The notes under the pieces are model-generated. The model made no database searches and was not told the DNA's origin. It saw only the letters and a program-made list of their open reading frames with translations. From the NCBI GenBank assembly GCA_035380285.1, contig DAOSXE010000015.1, positions 1,927 to 65,926 on the forward strand: a DNA stretch of 64,000 nucleotides, in the 5' to 3' direction. The position numbers were made by a program, and so were the translations under genes. The stretch comes from a bacterium (GTDB taxonomy: Bacteria > Auribacterota > Erginobacteria > Erginobacterales > DAOSXE01). Every line of letters starts with the position of its first letter. Position 1 is the first letter of the stretch. This document shows, piece by piece, positions 5,398 through 64,000 of this stretch.

Positions 5398-6210
5398 CTA
5401 CTTCAGGTAATAGAGCCGGGGGTTCTCCCCGATCCGCACGCTCAGTTCGATATAGGGCTTGATCGAACTCATGGCGATCTTCCCCATCAGAACCTCCTCC
5501 ACCTGGAAGATCCCGGTGGCGTCGCGCATGTCGATGGCGATTTCCAGGGGTTTGGTCTCTCCCCGCTTGAGCTCGACGCTGGTCACGCTCAGGGCCGAAT
5601 ACGCGTGGATATCCCCCACGGTGGGATCGTGCTTGCGCTTCACCGCCGCCCGGGCGCGGCCGTACTCCATGTCGCAGCCGTCGGATACCAGCATGATCCC
5701 GGATTCGATCGAGTTGACCTTCATGTGGGCCATGTGACCCATGATGCATTCGAAGATATAGGAACGCAGGATGTAGACCTTTCCCTCGTCCGGATAAATA
5801 TCCCGAAGCACTTCGAAGATGAACGGATCCCCGACGCGGGTGGAATTGATCTCGTGGTCCTGGCGCCCGATCGACATGCCCAGATCGTGAAGAAACGCCG
5901 AAACCGTCAGCACCACCTGGGCGTCCTCCACATCGCCCGAACCCTCCCTGACCACGGTGGGGTCGACCCCGGACTCGGCCAGAATGCCCACGATCTTGAG
6001 GGCGTTGAGGGTGGCGATCTTGGCGTGAACCCGGCCGTGGTCGTTGAACCCGTAGCGCTCGACCGAAACCACGTTGCAAAACCCCATCAGCCGCTCCAGC
6101 GCCTTCAGCGAGAGCAGGCGCTCCAGAGCGCGGCGGGCCTTCCCTTCCGATTTCTCCAACAGTTCGACGTCGAGCTTCTTCTCGAACTCGCTCTTCGCGT
6201 ATTCCGCCAT
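5398..6210 (-). CDS. HD-domain metal-dependent phosphohydrolase
   Basis: 270 aa with HGRVHAKI ... FLHDLGMS (H...HD signature). Confidence 0.65.
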   Translation of the reverse strand: MAEYAKSEFEKKLDVELLEKSEGKARRALERLLSLKALERLMGFCNVVSVERYGFNDHGRVHAKIATLNALKIVGILAESGVDPTVVREGSGDVEDAQVVLTVSAFLHDLGMSIGRQDHEINSTRVGDPFIFEVLRDIYPDEGKVYILRSYIFECIMGHMAHMKVNSIESGIMLVSDGCDMEYGRARAAVKRKHDPTVGDIHAYSALSVTSVELKRGETKPLEIAIDMRDATGIFQVEEVLMGKIAMSSIKPYIELSVRIGENPRLYYLK

Positions 6211-21739: not shown

Positions 21740-21812
21740 TGGAGCTGAGGGGATTCGAACCCCTGACCCCATGGCTGCCAGCCATGTGCTCTCCCAGCTG
21801 AGCTACAGCCCC
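21740..21812 (-). tRNA. tRNA-Ala (anticodon GGC)
   Basis: A 73-nt cloverleaf folded by hand: acceptor GGGGCUG/CAGCUCC with the G3:U70 alanine identity pair, D-arm GCUC-AGCUGGGA-GAGC, anticodon loop CU-GGC-AG, T-arm AGGGG-UUCGAAU-CCCCU, A73. No CCA is encoded. Confidence 0.95.
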
Positions 21813-53109: not shown

Positions 53110-53847
53110 TCATCGGGGAAAATCGTAGAAAAACCGGTCCGCCAACCGGTCCGCTCCCCCCCTCAACGCCGCCCCGACCAGCCAGGGGCGGCGAAGCAGG
53201 TACCAATCGCCGAAATAATCGAACTTGCGGCAGGAGGTGGTGATAAAGGCCCGGTACAGGGTCCGGAATCTTCGGCCGGTGCGACGGCCGTGGGCGCGCA
53301 GCCGACGGGCAAAGTCGATATCCTCGCCTACGCGGCGACCGGGATCGAAACCGCCCACGGCTTCGAAATCGCGGCGGCGGCACCAGAACAGACCCGCCGA
53401 AAGCCCGATCGGGACCGAACAGTAGATGAGAAGCCCGGTCAGCGCGATTCCCAGGGAAAGCCGTTCGGGCCGGATCATGACGCCGCCCCCGACGCACCGG
53501 GGGTTTCGCAACTTCCGTTCGATCTCGGAGAGCATGTTGTCGGACATGACGCTGTCGGCATCGACGGTCACCAGGATCTTCCCGCGGGCGAGACGGGCCC
53601 CGGCGTTGCGGACCAGGGAAAGGTTCCGGGCGTTTTCGACCGCCACCTGCGCTCCTCGGGCCCGGGCGATCTCCCCGGTCCCGTCGGTGCACCGGTTGCA
53701 GACCACGATGGTTTCCACCGCGCCCGGGCAGGCGCGCGAGGCGCGGGCGGTGGCATCGAGGCAGGCGCCGATCCGCTCGCTCTCGTCCCGGGCGGGAACC
53801 ACAACGGAAAAAAGAGGCGCGAAGGTTTGTGCGGGAACGGCCGTCAA
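53110..53847 (-). CDS. Family 2 glycosyltransferase
   Basis: FSVVVPARDESERIGACLD ... VTVDADS (GT2 N-terminal fold and DxD). Confidence 0.75.
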   Translation of the reverse strand: MTAVPAQTFAPLFSVVVPARDESERIGACLDATARASRACPGAVETIVVCNRCTDGTGEIARARGAQVAVENARNLSLVRNAGARLARGKILVTVDADSVMSDNMLSEIERKLRNPRCVGGGVMIRPERLSLGIALTGLLIYCSVPIGLSAGLFWCRRRDFEAVGGFDPGRRVGEDIDFARRLRAHGRRTGRRFRTLYRAFITTSCRKFDYFGDWYLLRRPWLVGAALRGGADRLADRFFYDFPR

Positions 53848-54842
53848 TTATCCCGAGGCTCGCCGCCGGGCCTGAAGAGGTCGAGGAAACGGTCCTCGTA
53901 TTCCTCGTAGATTCCCCAGTGATCGAGTTCGGCCTTGAGGTGAGCCGCCAGGGCCAGATCCCGTTCCACCTGCTTGAACAGCTCCTCGATCCGGGCGATT
54001 ACTTCCCCCGGCACCGGCTCGTCCTCGTCCCATTCCTCGTCGTCGGAATAGGCCAAACCTTCCTCCCCCTCATCCATTTCCTCGAAATCCTCGTCGTCCA
54101 TGGGCATCAACGAGGCCATGGTCTCCTGGGCTTTCTTCCCCATTTCCGCCACTTCCTGATCGAAACGGACGATCGCTTCTTCGAACCCCCCGGCTCCGAA
54201 GGGCAGGTTGAGAAACTTGGTCAGAACCTGAAGCAGCGTCCTGGACGTGCGGGGGTTTTCGAAATTGATCGTATAATAGGGGACTTCCCCCAGAAGACAC
54301 ATGCCGGGCAGGTTTTCCCGGGCGGCGGCGCCCAGGAGGAGGCCGTTCAGCCCGCTGATCTGCCCGGTCTTGAGCAGGCGCATTCCCGCCTGGCGCAGGT
54401 GGTCGCGGAGTTCGGGGCTGTTGGCCACCCCCCAGAAACCGGGGGTCTCCCGATGCTGGATGGGGCTGGGAGCGGCGGCGAAGGTTATGATCCGGTACAC
54501 CCCCATCCGCCGGGCCAGGCCGATCGCTTCGGCGGCCATCCGGGCCTGATGGGAAACGTCGGGCTGGGCGTCCCCGGAGAGGAGGATGAGGTCACCCCCG
54601 GAATAAACGTTCTTCCAAAAATAAAAATTGGTTTCCGGAAGGTTGGGGACACGGGCCAGACCGGCATCGACCTCGATGCTGTTGGGGGCGAAATAGTCCT
54701 CGGCGTGAACGTAGGCAAAACGCTCAGCTCCCAGAACCTCGATCAGATACGAGACGATCTGGGAGGCCACGTACCCCATCCCCGGCCATGCGGCCAGGAG
54801 TTGGGGGTGCTTGAGACGAGGATTTTTCAGATAAGTGATCAT
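53844..54842 (-). CDS. PAC2-family protein
   Basis: Start chosen at MITYLKNPRLKHPQLLAAWPGMGYVA. The N-terminal pattern is PAC2-like and the C-terminal tail is acidic. Assignment is from memory of the family. Confidence 0.45.
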   Translation of the reverse strand: MITYLKNPRLKHPQLLAAWPGMGYVASQIVSYLIEVLGAERFAYVHAEDYFAPNSIEVDAGLARVPNLPETNFYFWKNVYSGGDLILLSGDAQPDVSHQARMAAEAIGLARRMGVYRIITFAAAPSPIQHRETPGFWGVANSPELRDHLRQAGMRLLKTGQISGLNGLLLGAAARENLPGMCLLGEVPYYTINFENPRTSRTLLQVLTKFLNLPFGAGGFEEAIVRFDQEVAEMGKKAQETMASLMPMDDEDFEEMDEGEEGLAYSDDEEWDEDEPVPGEVIARIEELFKQVERDLALAAHLKAELDHWGIYEEYEDRFLDLFRPGGEPRDN

Positions 54843-54856
54843 CGACGTTCGCCGTT

Positions 54857-55069
54857 TCAGAAGAACCAGAGCAGGAAGGCAAGGACCGCCGACCCGACCA
54901 GAAGCGCTCCCAGCCAATGTCTCCAGCCGTACAGCAGACCGGTGAGCGGGCCGACCGGCTCTTCCAGCAGCTCCCCGCAGTAGATGCAGTTCAGGTTTTC
55001 GTCCGGGGTGGGCTGGCCGCAGTGAGGACAGCGCACCAGCCCCGGTCCGGGGTCATTTCCCCTTCTCAA
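54857..55069 (-). CDS. Small zinc-ribbon membrane protein
   Basis: CPHCGQ...CIYCG followed by one TM (ALLVGSAVLAFLLWFF). 70 aa. Confidence 0.45.
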   Translation of the reverse strand: MRRGNDPGPGLVRCPHCGQPTPDENLNCIYCGELLEEPVGPLTGLLYGWRHWLGALLVGSAVLAFLLWFF

Positions 55070-56414
55070 GCTTCTCGGCCTGGCGTTCGTAATCCCTGGC
55101 CGCGGCCTCGTGTCCCCGGGCGCGGCTGATCCGGGCCACCAGTTTCAGGGCCTCGATCTTATCCCGGAGAAACGAACCCTCGGCGGTCTTGGTCGCGGCC
55201 CGGGCCAGCTGGACCGCGCTTTCGGACATGCCCCGCTTGAACTGGGCCTCGGCCATATTGACCAGGACCAGGGTGTTGCCGGGGAAAGTCACCAGCAGCT
55301 GCTCCAGGACTTCCTTGGCCGCGGCCAGGTCTTTTTTCTTCTCCAGTTCGAGGGCGAGCCCGGTCAGGCAACCGAAGACGTCCAGGTTCTTCCCCAGAGC
55401 TTCGCGGATACGTCCGTGAACCCCGAGCTTGAATTCGTCTCCCAGGCCCCGGTAGGCGGCTTCCAGGATGCTGTGGGCGTGAAGAACCTCCATGGGGTAG
55501 TAGAACGGGGTTTCCGAGAGACCGTCTTCGGTCAGTTCCGCGGCTTTCTTGAATTCGCCCTTTTTCAGGCGATATTCCCCCATGGCCAGCTTGGAACGGG
55601 AATCCCAGGGCTCGCGCTTCTGCTTCTGGATGGCGCGGATCCGGTCCAGCCAATCCTTGGCCTCGTCCAGCTTCTCCTCCAAAAGGCAGAGTTCGGCCAG
55701 CTGGATCATGGCTTGATAGGATTCGGGCTCCGTTTTCAGGATCCTGTTGAAGGTGCGGCGGGCGGAGGCGTAATCGCCGAGGTCGAGGTAGGCCAACCCG
55801 ATCCACTTGACCGCGTCCATGTCGTCTTTCCTGATCTTCACCGCCTGCGTCAGGAATTCGATCGCGTCCTTTTTTCTGCCCACTTTCATGTAAAGACGCC
55901 CCAGGTCCTTGATCCGCCGGTGGGTGGCGCCGAAAACCCGGATCGCTTCCTTGAGGTTCTGAATCCCCTGCTGATGTTCGTCCATGACGAAATAGAGCTC
56001 GTAGAGGGCCGCGTACGAGCGCTCCTTCAGGGGACTGGTCCGGGGTATGTCCTTGAAGACGGCGACGGCCTCGGGAAGCTTTCCCCTCCGTTTATATATC
56101 CGGGCCAGGCGCACGTGCGCCGACCAGCTCTCCCCTTCCTTGACCAACTGCTTGTAGAGATCCACGGCGGAAGCCGATTTCCCCATCTCCTCATACACGC
56201 CGGCCAGCTGTTCCCGGATGAGCCGGTCCCGGGGAAAGACCGAGAGCGCCAGCTTCAGCACCGCCACCGCCTGCTCGTGCTCGCCCCGGCGGGCGAGCAG
56301 CGTGGCCAGGTGTTTATACGGCCCGTCCAGGCTGGGCCGATCGACGATTCGGTCCCGGACCTCGCGTTCCTTGGCCCCCTTCAATTTCAATTCCAGATCC
56401 TTGATCGTTTTCAT
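55053..56414 (-). CDS. Tetratricopeptide-repeat protein
   Basis: Multiple 34-aa TPR-like units (..A...L..A......A...LG.....G.....A...). Start chosen at MKTIKDLE. Confidence 0.7.
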   Translation of the reverse strand: MKTIKDLELKLKGAKEREVRDRIVDRPSLDGPYKHLATLLARRGEHEQAVAVLKLALSVFPRDRLIREQLAGVYEEMGKSASAVDLYKQLVKEGESWSAHVRLARIYKRRGKLPEAVAVFKDIPRTSPLKERSYAALYELYFVMDEHQQGIQNLKEAIRVFGATHRRIKDLGRLYMKVGRKKDAIEFLTQAVKIRKDDMDAVKWIGLAYLDLGDYASARRTFNRILKTEPESYQAMIQLAELCLLEEKLDEAKDWLDRIRAIQKQKREPWDSRSKLAMGEYRLKKGEFKKAAELTEDGLSETPFYYPMEVLHAHSILEAAYRGLGDEFKLGVHGRIREALGKNLDVFGCLTGLALELEKKKDLAAAKEVLEQLLVTFPGNTLVLVNMAEAQFKRGMSESAVQLARAATKTAEGSFLRDKIEALKLVARISRARGHEAAARDYERQAEKLEKGK

Positions 56415-56567
56415 CCTGACCCCCTTGGACGGTTGCAACTTTGATTTTCAGGATAGCGCAGCCCGAAGAAGCCAGGGAAGCAAAAAGCCTCGGCCCGGCG
56501 TTCGCGGCGTCGGCGACCGGGGCGCGGGAGGCGGGGCCGGGGCCCCGCCTCCCGCGCCGGGGAGAGG

Positions 56568-57911
56568 TCAATACTCGTAGACGCTCCCGCCGATGAATTC
56601 CCGCAGAAGGGAATCGGCGGGGATGACGGAATCGTCCTCGAGAACGTCGACCTGTTCCAGCCAGTCGAGGCAGCGACGGGCCCGGGCATGGGCATCCTCG
56701 CGGCCCGGAGAGGCAGCGAACGCCTCCACCGCCCGGCGCAGGCTCTCGTACGTGTATTTCTTATGTACGGGAAGCTCGTACGGCAGATAGCCGTTGATGA
56801 CCGCGTCGGCCTCCTTGATGAAGGGAACGATGTACTTTTTTTCGGAATCCCGGACGTAATGCCAGTGTCCCACCGTCATTTCCGGGGAGTAGTTGCGGTG
56901 GAGGTTGTCCCGGACCATCCGCCGCAGGAGCCGGATGTCGGTCCAGGGAACGAAGTTCCCGTCACTGCCGGTCAGCTGACAGATCGCCTCGATATACACC
57001 CGGAACTGGCTTTTGCGGGGTACGCCCCGGGTCACCTGGTCGTGGAGGCCGTGGAGCCCCTCGACCACCAGGATTTCCCCGGGTGCGAGCTGCATCGTCT
57101 TGCCCGTTTCCTCGCGGCGGCCGGTTTTGAAGTTATAGACCGGCACCACCGTTTCTTTCCCGGCCAGGAGATCCTTAAGGTTCCTGTTGATGGTGGCGAT
57201 GTCCAGGGCCCCGGGCGTTTCGAAATCATAGTCGCCGTATTCGTCCCGGGGCTGGTCCTTGAGGTTCCAGAAATAATTGTCCAGGGCCAGAAGCTGCAGT
57301 TTTTCGCCCGCGGTCCGCAAGGCCTCGCAGATCTTCATCGTGGTCGTGGTCTTGCCCGAAGAACTCGGTCCGGCCACGATCACGAGCCTGATCCGGTCCC
57401 GGTGGGAGAGGATCTCGCCCGCGATTTTCCAGATCGCGCCCTCGTAGGCGCGGTTCACGTCGCGGATGACCTCCCCGTACCCTCCGAAAGCGAGTCTCCG
57501 GTTGATCCCCTCGATGCTGTCGACGTCGCGTTCACGGTTCCAGGACCGCGACCGGGTCACGATTTCCATGCGGTAGAGCTCTTCCCAGGTCACCCCCGGC
57601 GAGGAAGCCTGCTTCGGAGAGGGCTTCGTGCCCGCGCTCTTCTTCGCCGCCGTCTTTTTCGCGACCGCTCGCTTGACCGCGGTTTTCTTCGGGGACACCT
57701 TCTTCGCGGCGGTTTTTTTGACCGCGGCTTTCTTCGGGGGCGCCTTCTTCGCGGCGGTTTTTTTGACCGCGGCTTTCTTCGGGGGCGCCTTCTTCACGGC
57801 GGTTTTTTTGACCGCGCTCTTCTTCGCCGCCGTCTTTTTCGCGACCGCCTGCTTGACCGCGGCCTTCTTGGGGGCGGCCTTCTTCGGGGCCGCTTTCTTC
57901 TTGGTCGGCAT
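56568..57911 (-). CDS. Uridine-kinase-family (PRK-type) P-loop kinase with N-terminal histone-H1-like Lys/Ala repeat tail
   Basis: Start at MPTKKK, with an AGGAGG RBS 5-6 nt upstream. About 100 aa of AAPKKAAVKKTAAKK repeats. Kinase motifs: VAGPSSSGKTTT, LALDNYFW, DFETPGALD, VPVYNFKTGRRE, ILVVEGLHGL. Confidence 0.7.
   Translation of the reverse strand: MPTKKKAAPKKAAPKKAAVKQAVAKKTAAKKSAVKKTAVKKAPPKKAAVKKTAAKKAPPKKAAVKKTAAKKVSPKKTAVKRAVAKKTAAKKSAGTKPSPKQASSPGVTWEELYRMEIVTRSRSWNRERDVDSIEGINRRLAFGGYGEVIRDVNRAYEGAIWKIAGEILSHRDRIRLVIVAGPSSSGKTTTTMKICEALRTAGEKLQLLALDNYFWNLKDQPRDEYGDYDFETPGALDIATINRNLKDLLAGKETVVPVYNFKTGRREETGKTMQLAPGEILVVEGLHGLHDQVTRGVPRKSQFRVYIEAICQLTGSDGNFVPWTDIRLLRRMVRDNLHRNYSPEMTVGHWHYVRDSEKKYIVPFIKEADAVINGYLPYELPVHKKYTYESLRRAVEAFAASPGREDAHARARRCLDWLEQVDVLEDDSVIPADSLLREFIGGSVYEY
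57621..57905 (-). repeat. Coding tandem repeats (45-bp unit and variants) encoding the K/A-rich tail
   Basis: The unit TCTTCGCGGCGGTTTTTTTGACCGCGGCTTTCTTCGGGGGCGCCT occurs back-to-back at 57701-57745 and 57746-57790, with a partial third copy. A second ~40-bp segment recurs at about 57636 and about 57806. Confidence 0.75.
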
Positions 57912-57953
57912 CAATACCTCCTGGATGCTCATCCGCTACGGCTGCAGAAGGGT

Positions 57954-57988
57954 ACGCCCGGGCGGCCGCAGCCGGGCCGCCCGGGCGT
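57954..57988 (-). terminator. Perfect 13-bp GC-rich hairpin between the H1-like gene and the kinase gene
   Basis: ACGCCCGGGCGGC (57954-57966) pairs with GCCGCCCGGGCGT (57976-57988) around a 9-nt loop. No U-tract. Confidence 0.3.
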
Positions 57989-57991
57989 TGA

Positions 57992-58012
57992 CCCGCGCCC
58001 GGCGGGCGCGGG
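57992..58012 (-). terminator. Second perfect 9-bp GC hairpin
   Basis: CCCGCGCCC (57992-58000), loop GGC, GGGCGCGGG (58004-58012). Confidence 0.25.
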
Positions 58013-58030
58013 AACTGTGCGTACTCGGTG

Positions 58031-58303
58031 TTACTTTTTCTTGGCAGACTTTTTGGCGGCTTTCTTCGGAGCCGCTTTCTTGGCCACTGCCTTCTTGGGG
58101 GCGGCCTTCTTGGCGACGGCCTTCTTCGGGGCCGCTTTCTTGGCCACGGCCTTCTTGGGGGCGGCCTTCTTCACCGCGGCTTTCTTCGGGGCCGCTTTCT
58201 TGGCCGCGGCCTTCTTCGGCGCCGCTTTCTTGGCGGCGGCCTTCTTCGGCGCCGCTTTCTTGGCGGCGGCCTTCTTCGGGGCGGCTTTCTTCTGGGCGGG
58301 CAT
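58031..58303 (-). CDS. Histone H1-like repetitive (KKAAPKKAAA) nucleoid-associated protein
   Basis: Start at MPAQKK, with an AAGGAGG RBS 6 nt upstream. 90 aa, almost entirely 10-aa KKAAPKKAA(A/V) repeats. Confidence 0.75.
   Translation of the reverse strand: MPAQKKAAPKKAAAKKAAPKKAAAKKAAPKKAAAKKAAPKKAAVKKAAPKKAVAKKAAPKKAVAKKAAPKKAVAKKAAPKKAAKKSAKKK
58052..58291 (-). repeat. Coding 30-bp tandem repeat array (about 8 units)
   Basis: Repeating GCCGCTTTCTTGGCNNCGGCCTTCTTCGGN on the plus strand. Confidence 0.75.
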
Positions 58304-58675
58304 CGTCTGCCTCCTTGGTGTTGCCATGGCTGCCGAAACCCTCACCCGGACAGCGACAGCCGCTCCGCCCGGGCGGGCCGGCCGGACACGAAAACCGGCC
58401 GGACCCTACTATTCTCTTTCTTGGCGCCAAGTTTTATTCCTTCCCCGCATGTTGTCAACATTGATTTCGCATCGATTTTTTAAAAGCGGCGGCCGGGGCG
58501 CGAACCCGGGCGCGCGACGACGACCGGGCGCGGGGGCGGAGCGGGGAGCGGACTCGGACGGCGAACGGCGGGGGCGGCGGGGCGGGGCCGACTTTTTCTC
58601 GACAACAACGCGCCGGCTGGTAAAAGATATCTCTTGGAAAACGAACCGAGAAAATCCCATCGGGAAACATCGAGG

Positions 58676-63458: not shown

Positions 63459-64000
63459 ATGAATTCATTGCTGCGAAACTGCGGGATCGTATTGTTCTCT
63501 TTAACCGCGGCCGCGGGGACGGCCCGGGCCCTGGAGGTCGAGTTGACCGGGGCGGAAACGGTCAGCCGCTGCGAGGCCGACACCTACTACATCTCCGTCG
63601 GGAACCCCGCCTGGACCGCCCACACCGCGGAGAACATCGTCCTGGTCGACACGGTCCCCCCCGACGGATTCGTCTTCCAGAACGATTCCGCCTCCATCAC
63701 CACCCCCCAGGGCTCCCTGTCCGGAAGCGGGGCCAACCCGGGGATTTCCGGGAGTGACCTGACCTGGGACCTGAACGCCCTTTTCGGATCCAGCATCACC
63801 CTGGCGCCCGGCGACACCCTGGATATCGAGTTCGCCCTGGAGATCGACTGCGACGGCAACAGCGGCCAGAACGACCTGACGGTCAGCTACGACTTCCCGT
63901 TCCCCGTGCCCCAGTCCGATACCGAGGCTCTCTTCATCACGGTGATGCCCGGGGACATCAACCTCCTCAAGACCCCGGTGACCCAGGAGGCCGGGATGGG
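63459..64000 (+). CDS. Secreted DUF11-like repeat-domain protein, N-terminal part (3' end beyond window)
   Basis: I translated the frame from the ATG at 63459 and it is open to the window end. Signal peptide MNSLLRNCGIVLFSLTAAAGTARA. The YYISVGNP...NIVLVDTVPPGF...L.PGDTL.IEF pattern is DUF11-like. It is absent from the ORF track because no stop is reached. Confidence 0.6.
   Translation, partial: MNSLLRNCGIVLFSLTAAAGTARALEVELTGAETVSRCEADTYYISVGNPAWTAHTAENIVLVDTVPPDGFVFQNDSASITTPQGSLSGSGANPGISGSDLTWDLNALFGSSITLAPGDTLDIEFALEIDCDGNSGQNDLTVSYDFPFPVPQSDTEALFITVMPGDINLLKTPVTQEAGM

Follow-up and report, generated by a model that had tools for sequence, protein, structure and literature searches.

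How does a metabolic kinase come to carry a tail that resembles histone H1? The question is raised by a 64,000-nucleotide stretch of bacterial DNA (contig DAOSXE010000015.1 of assembly GCA_035380285.1, positions 1,927 to 65,926 of the forward strand), which is called the window in the following. Two adjacent genes of the window, both on the minus strand, carry Lys/Ala repeats: one encodes a stand-alone protein of 90 amino acids (aa), and the other a protein of 447 aa in which a repetitive tail precedes a kinase of the uridine kinase (Udk) type. A sequence-only reading of this DNA had described the pair accurately as two neighbouring genes with H1-like repeats. We find that the H1-like tail on the Udk-like kinase is genuine, recurs in relatives and is constrained in its composition, and literature searches returned no description of it. 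The two genes are built from the following parts, all on the minus strand.

58310..58315, minus: Shine-Dalgarno sequence AGGAGG, 6 nt 5′ of the small-gene ATG (sequence).
58031..58303, minus: gene of the stand-alone Lys/Ala protein, 90 aa (open reading frame; a 90-aa gene is called on the loci L001 and L002).
58056..58291, minus: 30-bp (10-codon) array encoding the small protein, 7.9 copies (Tandem Repeats Finder, TRF).
57917..57922, minus: Shine-Dalgarno sequence AGGAGG, 5 nt 5′ of the kinase ATG (sequence; start-codon survey).
56568..57911, minus: tailed nucleoside-kinase-like gene, 447 aa (list of open reading frames; exact match to the database protein P0001).
57597..57911, minus: kinase codons 1-105, polycationic Lys/Ala/Pro/Val/Thr tail, predicted to be disordered (composition, Pfam HC2, AlphaFold).
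57632..57896, minus: 45-bp (15-codon) array encoding the kinase tail, 5.9 copies (TRF).
56571..57587, minus: kinase core, residues 109-447, made up of the PRK/Udk P-loop domain and a helical extension on either side of it.
56793-57380, minus: PRK/Udk P-loop domain, residues 178-373 (Pfam PRK).

The small protein starts with MPAQKKAAPKK and can be written as MPAQ(KKAAPKKAAA)n...KKK. Its 90 residues include 37 K, 37 A and 9 P, which give it a net charge of +37; in the mechanical list of open reading frames (ORFs) the frame extends to a GTG at 58345, for 104 aa. Where the sequence-only reading had counted about eight 30-bp units, TRF gives 7.9 copies with 85% matches and a score of 325. The 447-aa protein is identical to NCBI HOO77696.1, named 'nucleoside kinase'. 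Its gene opens with ATG-CCG (MPTKKK...), and the start of about 100 aa that had been assigned to 45-bp units corresponds to residues 1-105, with 37 K, 29 A, 11 P, not a single acidic residue and a net charge of +38. TRF reads this array as 5.9 copies at a 45-bp period (79% matches, score 274) or as 2.9 copies at a 90-bp period (score 334). The 30-bp and 45-bp arrays are the sole tandem repeats with a TRF score of at least 80 in the window, and neither a second kinase paralogue nor further K-rich proteins were found in it. The plus-strand ORFs that cover the same region (663 aa, and 278 aa with 'FFAAVFF...') were rejected as mirror-frame artefacts of the GC-rich periodic sequence.

How H1-like are these repeats? 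The kinase tail passes the cut-off of the Pfam family HC2 (PF07382), with 45.2 bits against 40 over residues 3-102, a match driven by composition, so that the H1-like character claimed for the repeats holds at this level. The 90-aa protein stays below the same cut-off of 40 with 32.4 bits, and the NCBIfam models NF038052 and NF038053 give the tail 43.5 bits against a cut-off of 80 and 30 against 135, respectively. AlphaFold predicts no secondary structure for residues 1-100, where the predicted local distance difference test (pLDDT) score is 40-54 as means of 10-residue blocks.

Is the rest of the protein a complete kinase, as the sequence-only reading also held? Pfam PRK (PF00485) matches residues 178-373 with E 1.1e-22 and 81.2 bits against a cut-off of 22, and the closest sequences in the Protein Data Bank (PDB) are uridine or uridine-cytidine kinases (E 8e-13 to about 1e-12). 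The core is modelled by AlphaFold at pLDDT 80-97, on the basis of 35 homologues, with helical extensions of about 65 aa on its N-terminal and about 70 aa on its C-terminal side. When the model is compared with known structures by Foldseek, the top 30 matches are all uridine-cytidine kinases (E ~1e-10, target TM-score ~0.7, 21-26% identity), followed by phosphoribulokinases and pantothenate kinases. These three kinds of evidence agree on a fusion of the repeats to a complete Udk/PRK-fold kinase. Because the P-loop (GPSSSGKTT), the DNYFW motif with its Asp, and the lid arginines in RLLRRMVRD are invariant in the 35 homologues, the kinase looks catalytically competent, and as judged from its sequence it is a non-canonical Udk. 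At the locus L165 (626-1348, minus), a PNP_UDP_1 nucleoside phosphorylase is encoded two genes 5′ of the tail-less sister kinase P0004, and this neighbour fits a nucleoside-salvage role of the kinase.

Does the tail really belong to the protein? Among all in-frame ATG, GTG and TTG codons through residue 118, only the start pair 57911/57914 is preceded by a Shine-Dalgarno sequence. The longer kinase ORF from the ATG at 57932 has none, nor has GTG107, which would leave 2 residues ahead of the conserved W109 whereas tail-less homologues have 5-8. NCBI also holds a 333-aa version, P0121, which starts at M115 and would lose the conserved W109 and Y113. Since P0121 is carried by a contig of about 10 kb, and the contig L084 begins within the repeat array, this short version is probably the product of a broken contig. 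The sequence-only reading had considered a start downstream of the repeats as fatal to the fusion; the Shine-Dalgarno sequence and the polycationic tails of 38 homologues, described below, make it almost certain that the start lies 5′ of the repeats.

It had also been expected that the arrays would vary in length between strains. For six assemblies, all of them from short reads, copy numbers were compared along an aligned 1.9 kb that runs from the promoter region of the small gene to the stop codon of the kinase gene, and two polymorphic units were located.

57751..57796, minus: exactly duplicated 45-bp unit KKAPPKKAAVKKTAA, polymorphic (cluster members, DNA alignment; its placement is arbitrary within one unit).
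58250..58279, minus: 30-bp unit missing in the locus L164 (DNA alignment; 80-aa gene call).

The KKAPPKKAAVKKTAA unit is present once in L164 (P0123), twice in the window and three times in L163 (P0122), where P0122 and P0123 are members of the 90%-identity cluster of the kinase. In L164 the small protein has 80 aa, corresponding to one 30-bp unit fewer. There are no single-nucleotide differences in the whole alignment, and the assemblies differ by entire in-frame units only, as expected if repeat length varies between strains. Is the window sequence itself an artefact of assembly, as the sequence-only reading had cautioned? It is found again in the separately deposited L001, L002 and L083, and partly in L084, and the two-copy form is present in at least three assemblies. 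This recurrence speaks against an artefact in the window sequence; the caution keeps some force for the differences in copy number, which are weighed below.

What is conserved in the tails, if not their length? For this comparison we took the 80 closest database homologues, with cores 62-81% identical. They carry 38 distinct N-terminal tails of 24-133 aa, which are mutually unalignable and all polycationic: the tails contain 30.5% K, 6% R and 1.5% D+E, against 14% K+R and 15% D+E in the cores, and acidic and aromatic residues are nearly absent from them. The net charge of the tails in the lineage is about +10 to +48. Their DNA period varies by lineage: it is 45 bp in the window, and L003 has 27 bp, L090 48 bp and L098 18 bp; in the tail DNA of L100, L105 and L166 no tandem period is detectable. 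Truly tail-less relatives have no K-rich frame 5′ of the core. That the Lys frame stays open while the tail sequence turns over argues for translation of the tail as part of the kinase, and for selection on its charge.

About 2.7 kb 5′ of tail-less kinases on other Auribacterota-type contigs, there is a protein of about 120 aa with a Lys/Ala/Arg-rich C-terminal tail (...KKKGGARRAGKAGKAAPAAEKAAPKAKKAAPKAKKARRRKKSKKKAA), whose small N-terminal domain has no Pfam hit. Polycationic tails in the lineage are thus not limited to the kinase. The features concerned are these.

L095 221-592, plus, and L093 about 2211-2351: Lys/Ala/Arg-tailed protein of about 120 aa near tail-less kinases.
L096, the C-terminal about 105 codons of 798-2372, plus: the same kind of protein.

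What stands in front of the kinase in more distant relatives? Loci were collected from 185,579 species-representative genomes and from metagenomes of the Joint Genome Institute (JGI). In at least 94 of the 134 distant loci (<62% core identity), the kinase is preceded at the same N-terminal junction by an ATP-cone (PF03477), about 105-120 aa long, a lower bound obtained with a strict pattern, since more are seen by eye; K-rich tails occur in none of the 134. These loci belong to Elusimicrobiota, Anaerolineae, Kiritimatiellia, Lentisphaerota, Marinimicrobia, Spirochaetota, Hydrogenedentota and others. The clade with core identity of at least 62% comprises 34 loci, 19 with a K-rich tail and 14 essentially without extension, and the ATP-cone is absent from it; the window kinase accordingly gave no PF03477 match in the Pfam search. 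Its named members are Candidatus Auribacterota (Erginobacter, Euphemobacter, Tritonobacter, Aureabacteria), of the PVC (Planctomycetes-Verrucomicrobia-Chlamydiae) group. It is from these nearest relatives of the one kinase gene that the window organism is assigned to Auribacterota. The ATP-cone joined to a Udk-like kinase with helical extensions makes up a family across many phyla (L007-L082 and L106-L162; for example L014, L023, L027 and L077), whose members bear the database names 'nucleoside kinase', 'uridine kinase' and, probably spuriously, 'response regulator SirA'. No paper was found in a literature search for an ATP-cone linked to a uridine or nucleoside kinase, and a Pfam census of the same-strand downstream gene at 81 ATP-cone loci gave no recurrent neighbour as a clue to the substrate (ClpS 4, SurE 3).

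When the cores are placed in a neighbour-joining tree with bootstrapping, all 200 replicates unite the window protein with P0002 and P0003, and the tail-less sister P0004 joins this trio in 148. The tailed kinases are monophyletic in none of the 200. As they never form one clade, there must have been more than one gain of the tail, repeated losses, or both. The metagenome-assembled genome SRP090828_co4_59 holds two paralogues of the kinase, the tailed L003 with 78% identity to the window core and the tail-less L008 with 50%, which starts at MTDA directly before the core. From this pair, the tailed copy may be a specialised duplicate.

Did the tail arise from the small gene next to it? The sequence-only reading had proposed that the H1-like gene was duplicated and then fused to the kinase. 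The two arrays do align collinearly along 214 nt, with their KKxxx pentamers in register and a score of 81.5 against 18.9 ± 2.9 for codon-order shuffles. When synonymous codons of both peptides are resampled, however, the score is 79.4 ± 7.9, and the observed one is equalled or exceeded in 114 of 300 resamples. Over their first 66 nt the genes have 54 identities, where 50.2 ± 2.2 are expected, and the upstream regions share the Shine-Dalgarno sequence only, being otherwise unalignable. Of the shared start context that had been put forward, AGGAGG and ATG are present at both genes, but this is merely a consensus ribosome-binding site, as AGGAGG-N4-9-ATG occurs 10 times in the window. At L003 the small protein (K/A/V, with AAG codons) and the tail (K/T/G/S, with AAA runs) are dissimilar. 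The idea that the small gene was recently duplicated into the kinase was rejected, as there is no signal of similarity past the shared peptide periodicity. Duplication and fusion is thus not demonstrated: synonymous sites are at the level of chance, the pair at L003 is unlike, and most tailed relatives have no small gene. Within the small clade of the window, duplication followed by fusion is possible, and it is equally possible that the small gene derived from the tail.

How, then, are the two genes related in their expression? They are separated by a spacer of 119 nt, and the surroundings contain these further features.

57954..58012, minus: two GC-rich hairpins with stems of 9 bp and about 14 bp, no U-tract (RNA fold).
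58431..58458, minus: candidate promoter of the small gene, TTGACA, 16 nt, TAAAAC (by eye).
53844-56438, minus: region of a TPR (tetratricopeptide repeat) gene and a PAC2 gene 3′ of the kinase.

The spacer RNA folds with -70.1 kcal/mol (z -3.4), and 0 of 200 shuffles are as stable; the hairpins are possibly a terminator, an attenuator or an element of RNA stability. A promoter scan passed no site by its criteria. The hits of a terminator scan were discarded, as all of them lie within the repeats on the plus (non-coding) strand and result from the repetitive sequence itself. Among known RNA elements, none reached its gathering threshold in the leader or the spacer, with a chance-level match (E 0.54) only.

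L003 offers a comparison. Its positional orthologue of the small gene encodes 45 aa (MPAKKKAVKKAAKKPVKK...KKK; 5729-5866), with TTGACA, 18 nt, TAAAAA at the same relative position and AAGGAGG ahead of the ATG. A long perfect hairpin again separates the small gene from the kinase gene, and both flanks agree with those in the window, with DUF4404 on the upstream and the TPR gene on the downstream side. At the P0002 loci (L166-L168), TTGACA-17-TAGAAT is located directly 5′ of the kinase and the small gene is absent within 385 nt 5′ of it; at the tail-less sister locus L165, GFO_IDH_MocA abuts the kinase. Tailed kinases of the large clade have no K-rich ORF in their 5-kb flanks. Adjacency of small gene and kinase is therefore common to the window species and L003 and was not seen in the third member of the clade, and it may be functional, through co-transcription across the hairpins, or historical. 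No stand-alone orthologue of the 90-aa protein was found, and its exact sequence is absent from the protein collection. A search with it gave 17 compositional hits, all of them K/A tails on SWIB, ribosomal L30, dodecin and Hc1 proteins, which points to such tails being mobile add-ons.

Beyond these genes, the order of kinase, a TPR protein of about 455 aa and PAC2 (proteasome-assembly-chaperone-like) is kept clade-wide, with or without a tail (L001, L003, L165, L166). Three P0002 contigs from different samples end 310-385 nt 5′ of the kinase (L166 1-330, L167 1-275, L168), in short dispersed repeats such as GCGCAGCGGGAGCGATCCT, AGCGCAGCGAGGGACGATACT and CGGCGGCACGATCCTAC, so that an assembly-breaking repeat probably lies just 5′ of that kinase. 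At about 63459-64000 on the plus strand of the window, a very large gene (L001 1-453) begins and leaves the window; on the parent contig it encodes 3,774 aa. One tRNA gene (21740-21812, minus) is the sole Rfam match at the gathering threshold in the window.

What could a polycationic tail do for such a kinase? The reading that we favour, and to which we give a little better than an even chance, is that the tail is a non-specific anchor to polyanions, namely nucleic acid, on a salvage kinase, while the small gene encodes a separate H1/Hc2-like protein. The 447-aa protein would then be an active nucleoside-salvage kinase of Udk fold, from an uncharacterised family, and in the Auribacterota-type clade, where the ATP-cone is absent, a disordered Lys/Ala/Pro tail would have taken its place in at least two sub-lineages, that of the window among them. 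The tail would lengthen and shorten as its short in-frame DNA repeats slip or recombine unequally. It would bind DNA or RNA, and possibly polyphosphate, without specificity and so enrich the kinase at the nucleoid or on RNA. The 90-aa gene would encode a stand-alone polycation, probably nucleoid-associated, and would probably be expressed from its own promoter, split from the kinase gene by the strong hairpins. To our knowledge, all the bacterial H1-like Lys/Ala/Pro tails that have been studied (Hc2, AlgP/PhaF, Ku, TopA, DdbA) bind polyanions, and for this reason polyanion binding is the most likely activity of the kinase tail. The tethering to nucleic acid that the sequence-only reading had put forward is plausible on this precedent. 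Several points weigh against this anchor. Many close relatives are tail-less, so the tail is dispensable for catalysis, and there is no obvious need for a metabolic kinase to be tethered to nucleic acid; we know of no nucleic-acid substrate of nucleoside kinases. The kinase also scores far under the cut-offs of uridine-kinase equivalogs (TIGR00235, 95.2 against 220.3 bits; NF004018, 91.9 against 180 bits). At the position for base specificity, which we take to be His117 in human UCK2 and Tyr93 in the Thermus enzyme (ttCK), it has Gly (FKTGRR in the query against FRAHTR in a phmmer alignment to 3w8r), and this G264 is invariant in the clade. Finally, the copy differences could partly reflect collapse or expansion by the assembler; the lone assembly with fewer units, L164, has fewer in both arrays, and the assemblies are maybe not fully independent.

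Could it be that the tail has no specific function? It might be a largely neutral, slippage-driven expansion, or an 'entropic bristle' that promotes solubility, next to an unrelated small gene, and we grant this a modest chance. Such an origin is in line with the lack of conservation in sequence, length and repeat period, with the gains or losses implied by the tree, with the copy numbers that differ among near-identical genomes, and with the absence of the tail from close relatives altogether; yet the composition of 38 tails is tightly constrained, and the frame is open for up to 133 codons where the cores are only about 62-70% identical to that of the window, whereas under neutral drift of a GC-rich repeat the Lys frame would not persist. 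A small chance remains for the idea that the tail is a regulatory module replacing the ATP-cone, an electrostatic switch that is released or engaged by polyanions (nucleic acid, polyphosphate, nucleotides), either by folding back on the acidic core or through oligomerisation or condensation, so that salvage would be coupled to the polyanion state of the cell. The ATP-cone is a mobile nucleotide-sensing domain that works via oligomerisation (PMC9110341, PMC11226230), and the tail occupies its exact N-terminal position at a similar length (68-133 aa against about 105-120 aa). Tailed cores are also more acidic than tail-less ones, with a mean net charge of -6.0 against +0.4 among P0001-P0080 (Mann-Whitney p ~1e-9, with kinship ignored and shared ancestry as a confounder) and of -3 to -6 in the window clade against +3 in the tail-less sister; but the tail-less P0064 has an equally acidic core, AlphaFold shows no confident contact between tail and core, and many clade members have neither ATP-cone nor tail. 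A variant that we hold to be quite improbable makes the tail the successor of the ATP-cone as a switch for RNA, DNA or polyphosphate, in which the 90-aa polycation acts in trans as a competitor or co-condensing partner and repeat slippage tunes the system between strains. As for the doubt that the repeats lie outside the kinase protein, its real start being downstream, or that the repeat structure was made by the assembler, the 333-aa version from M115, the contig that begins inside the array and so indicates that the repeat breaks assemblies, and the unequal repeat counts all speak in its favour. The contig of P0121, however, looks like a broken one, and the short form lacks two conserved residues; the downstream starts have no Shine-Dalgarno sequence and GTG107 leaves too short a lead; the two-copy form recurs and every difference is a whole in-frame unit; and the exact repeat of 90-135 bp should be spannable by a typical read of 150 nt. 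We consider it very improbable.

The tailed kinase, with its anchor or not, belongs to a known phenomenon, in which lysine-rich low-complexity tails on bacterial proteins evolve by repeat slippage. Chlamydial Hc2 (HctB) varies in size via the number of its lysine-rich repeats (PMC2848022). The window proteins are like it in their Lys/Ala-rich, pentamer-based repeats and in size polymorphism by repeat number, here with the caveat on assemblers, and the window organism, like Chlamydia, appears to be a member of the PVC group. They are unlike it in that the match is compositional and one copy is fused to an enzyme, the small protein being under the Pfam cut-off and the NCBIfam models far from reached. 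In Pseudomonas, the KPAA tail of AlgP binds DNA and associates with polyphosphate granules, the tail of PhaF is thought to tether granules to the nucleoid, and the AlgP/PhaF repeat region is a mutational hot spot (PMC9239181). There, too, a disordered K/P/A tandem-repeat domain is attached to an unrelated folded domain, but those tails are C-terminal, on structural or regulatory proteins, and their repeat unit differs, whereas in the window the tail is found at the N-terminus of a metabolic P-loop kinase.

Among actinobacterial proteins, lysine-rich PAKKA repeats modulate DNA binding of Ku (PMC3553676), the high processivity of TopA comes from lysine repeats (PMC7398561), and in DdbA of Streptomyces an H1-like domain is joined to a DksA-like one (PMC3643593). 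The polycationic low-complexity tails of Ku, TopA, HupB and DdbA modulate DNA binding or processivity and resemble the window tail as such; unlike the kinase, however, their host domains already act on DNA or RNA polymerase. Udk/UCK enzymes (PDB 3asz, 1ufq, 1udw) share fold, P-loop, catalytic Asp motif and lid arginines with the window kinase, which differs from them in its helical extensions, its scores below the equivalog cut-offs and its Gly at the base-specificity position. The ATP-cone orthologues share the kinase core (43-53% identity) and bear an N-terminal add-on at the same junction, but their add-on is the folded nucleotide-binding PF03477 and that of the window kinase a disordered polycation.

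What does the finding mean for these organisms? Bacterial H1-like tails have been described mostly on proteins that already handle DNA or granules, and here such a tail is carried by a metabolic kinase. A tail under compositional selection on a kinase suggests that polycationic disordered tails are a general and fast-evolving means of enzyme localisation or regulation in this poorly known lineage of the PVC group. That the tail stands where relatives have the ATP-cone, and was apparently gained repeatedly, strengthens this suggestion of generality, and the short in-frame arrays, which already differ between metagenomes, are a natural series for relating tail length to function.

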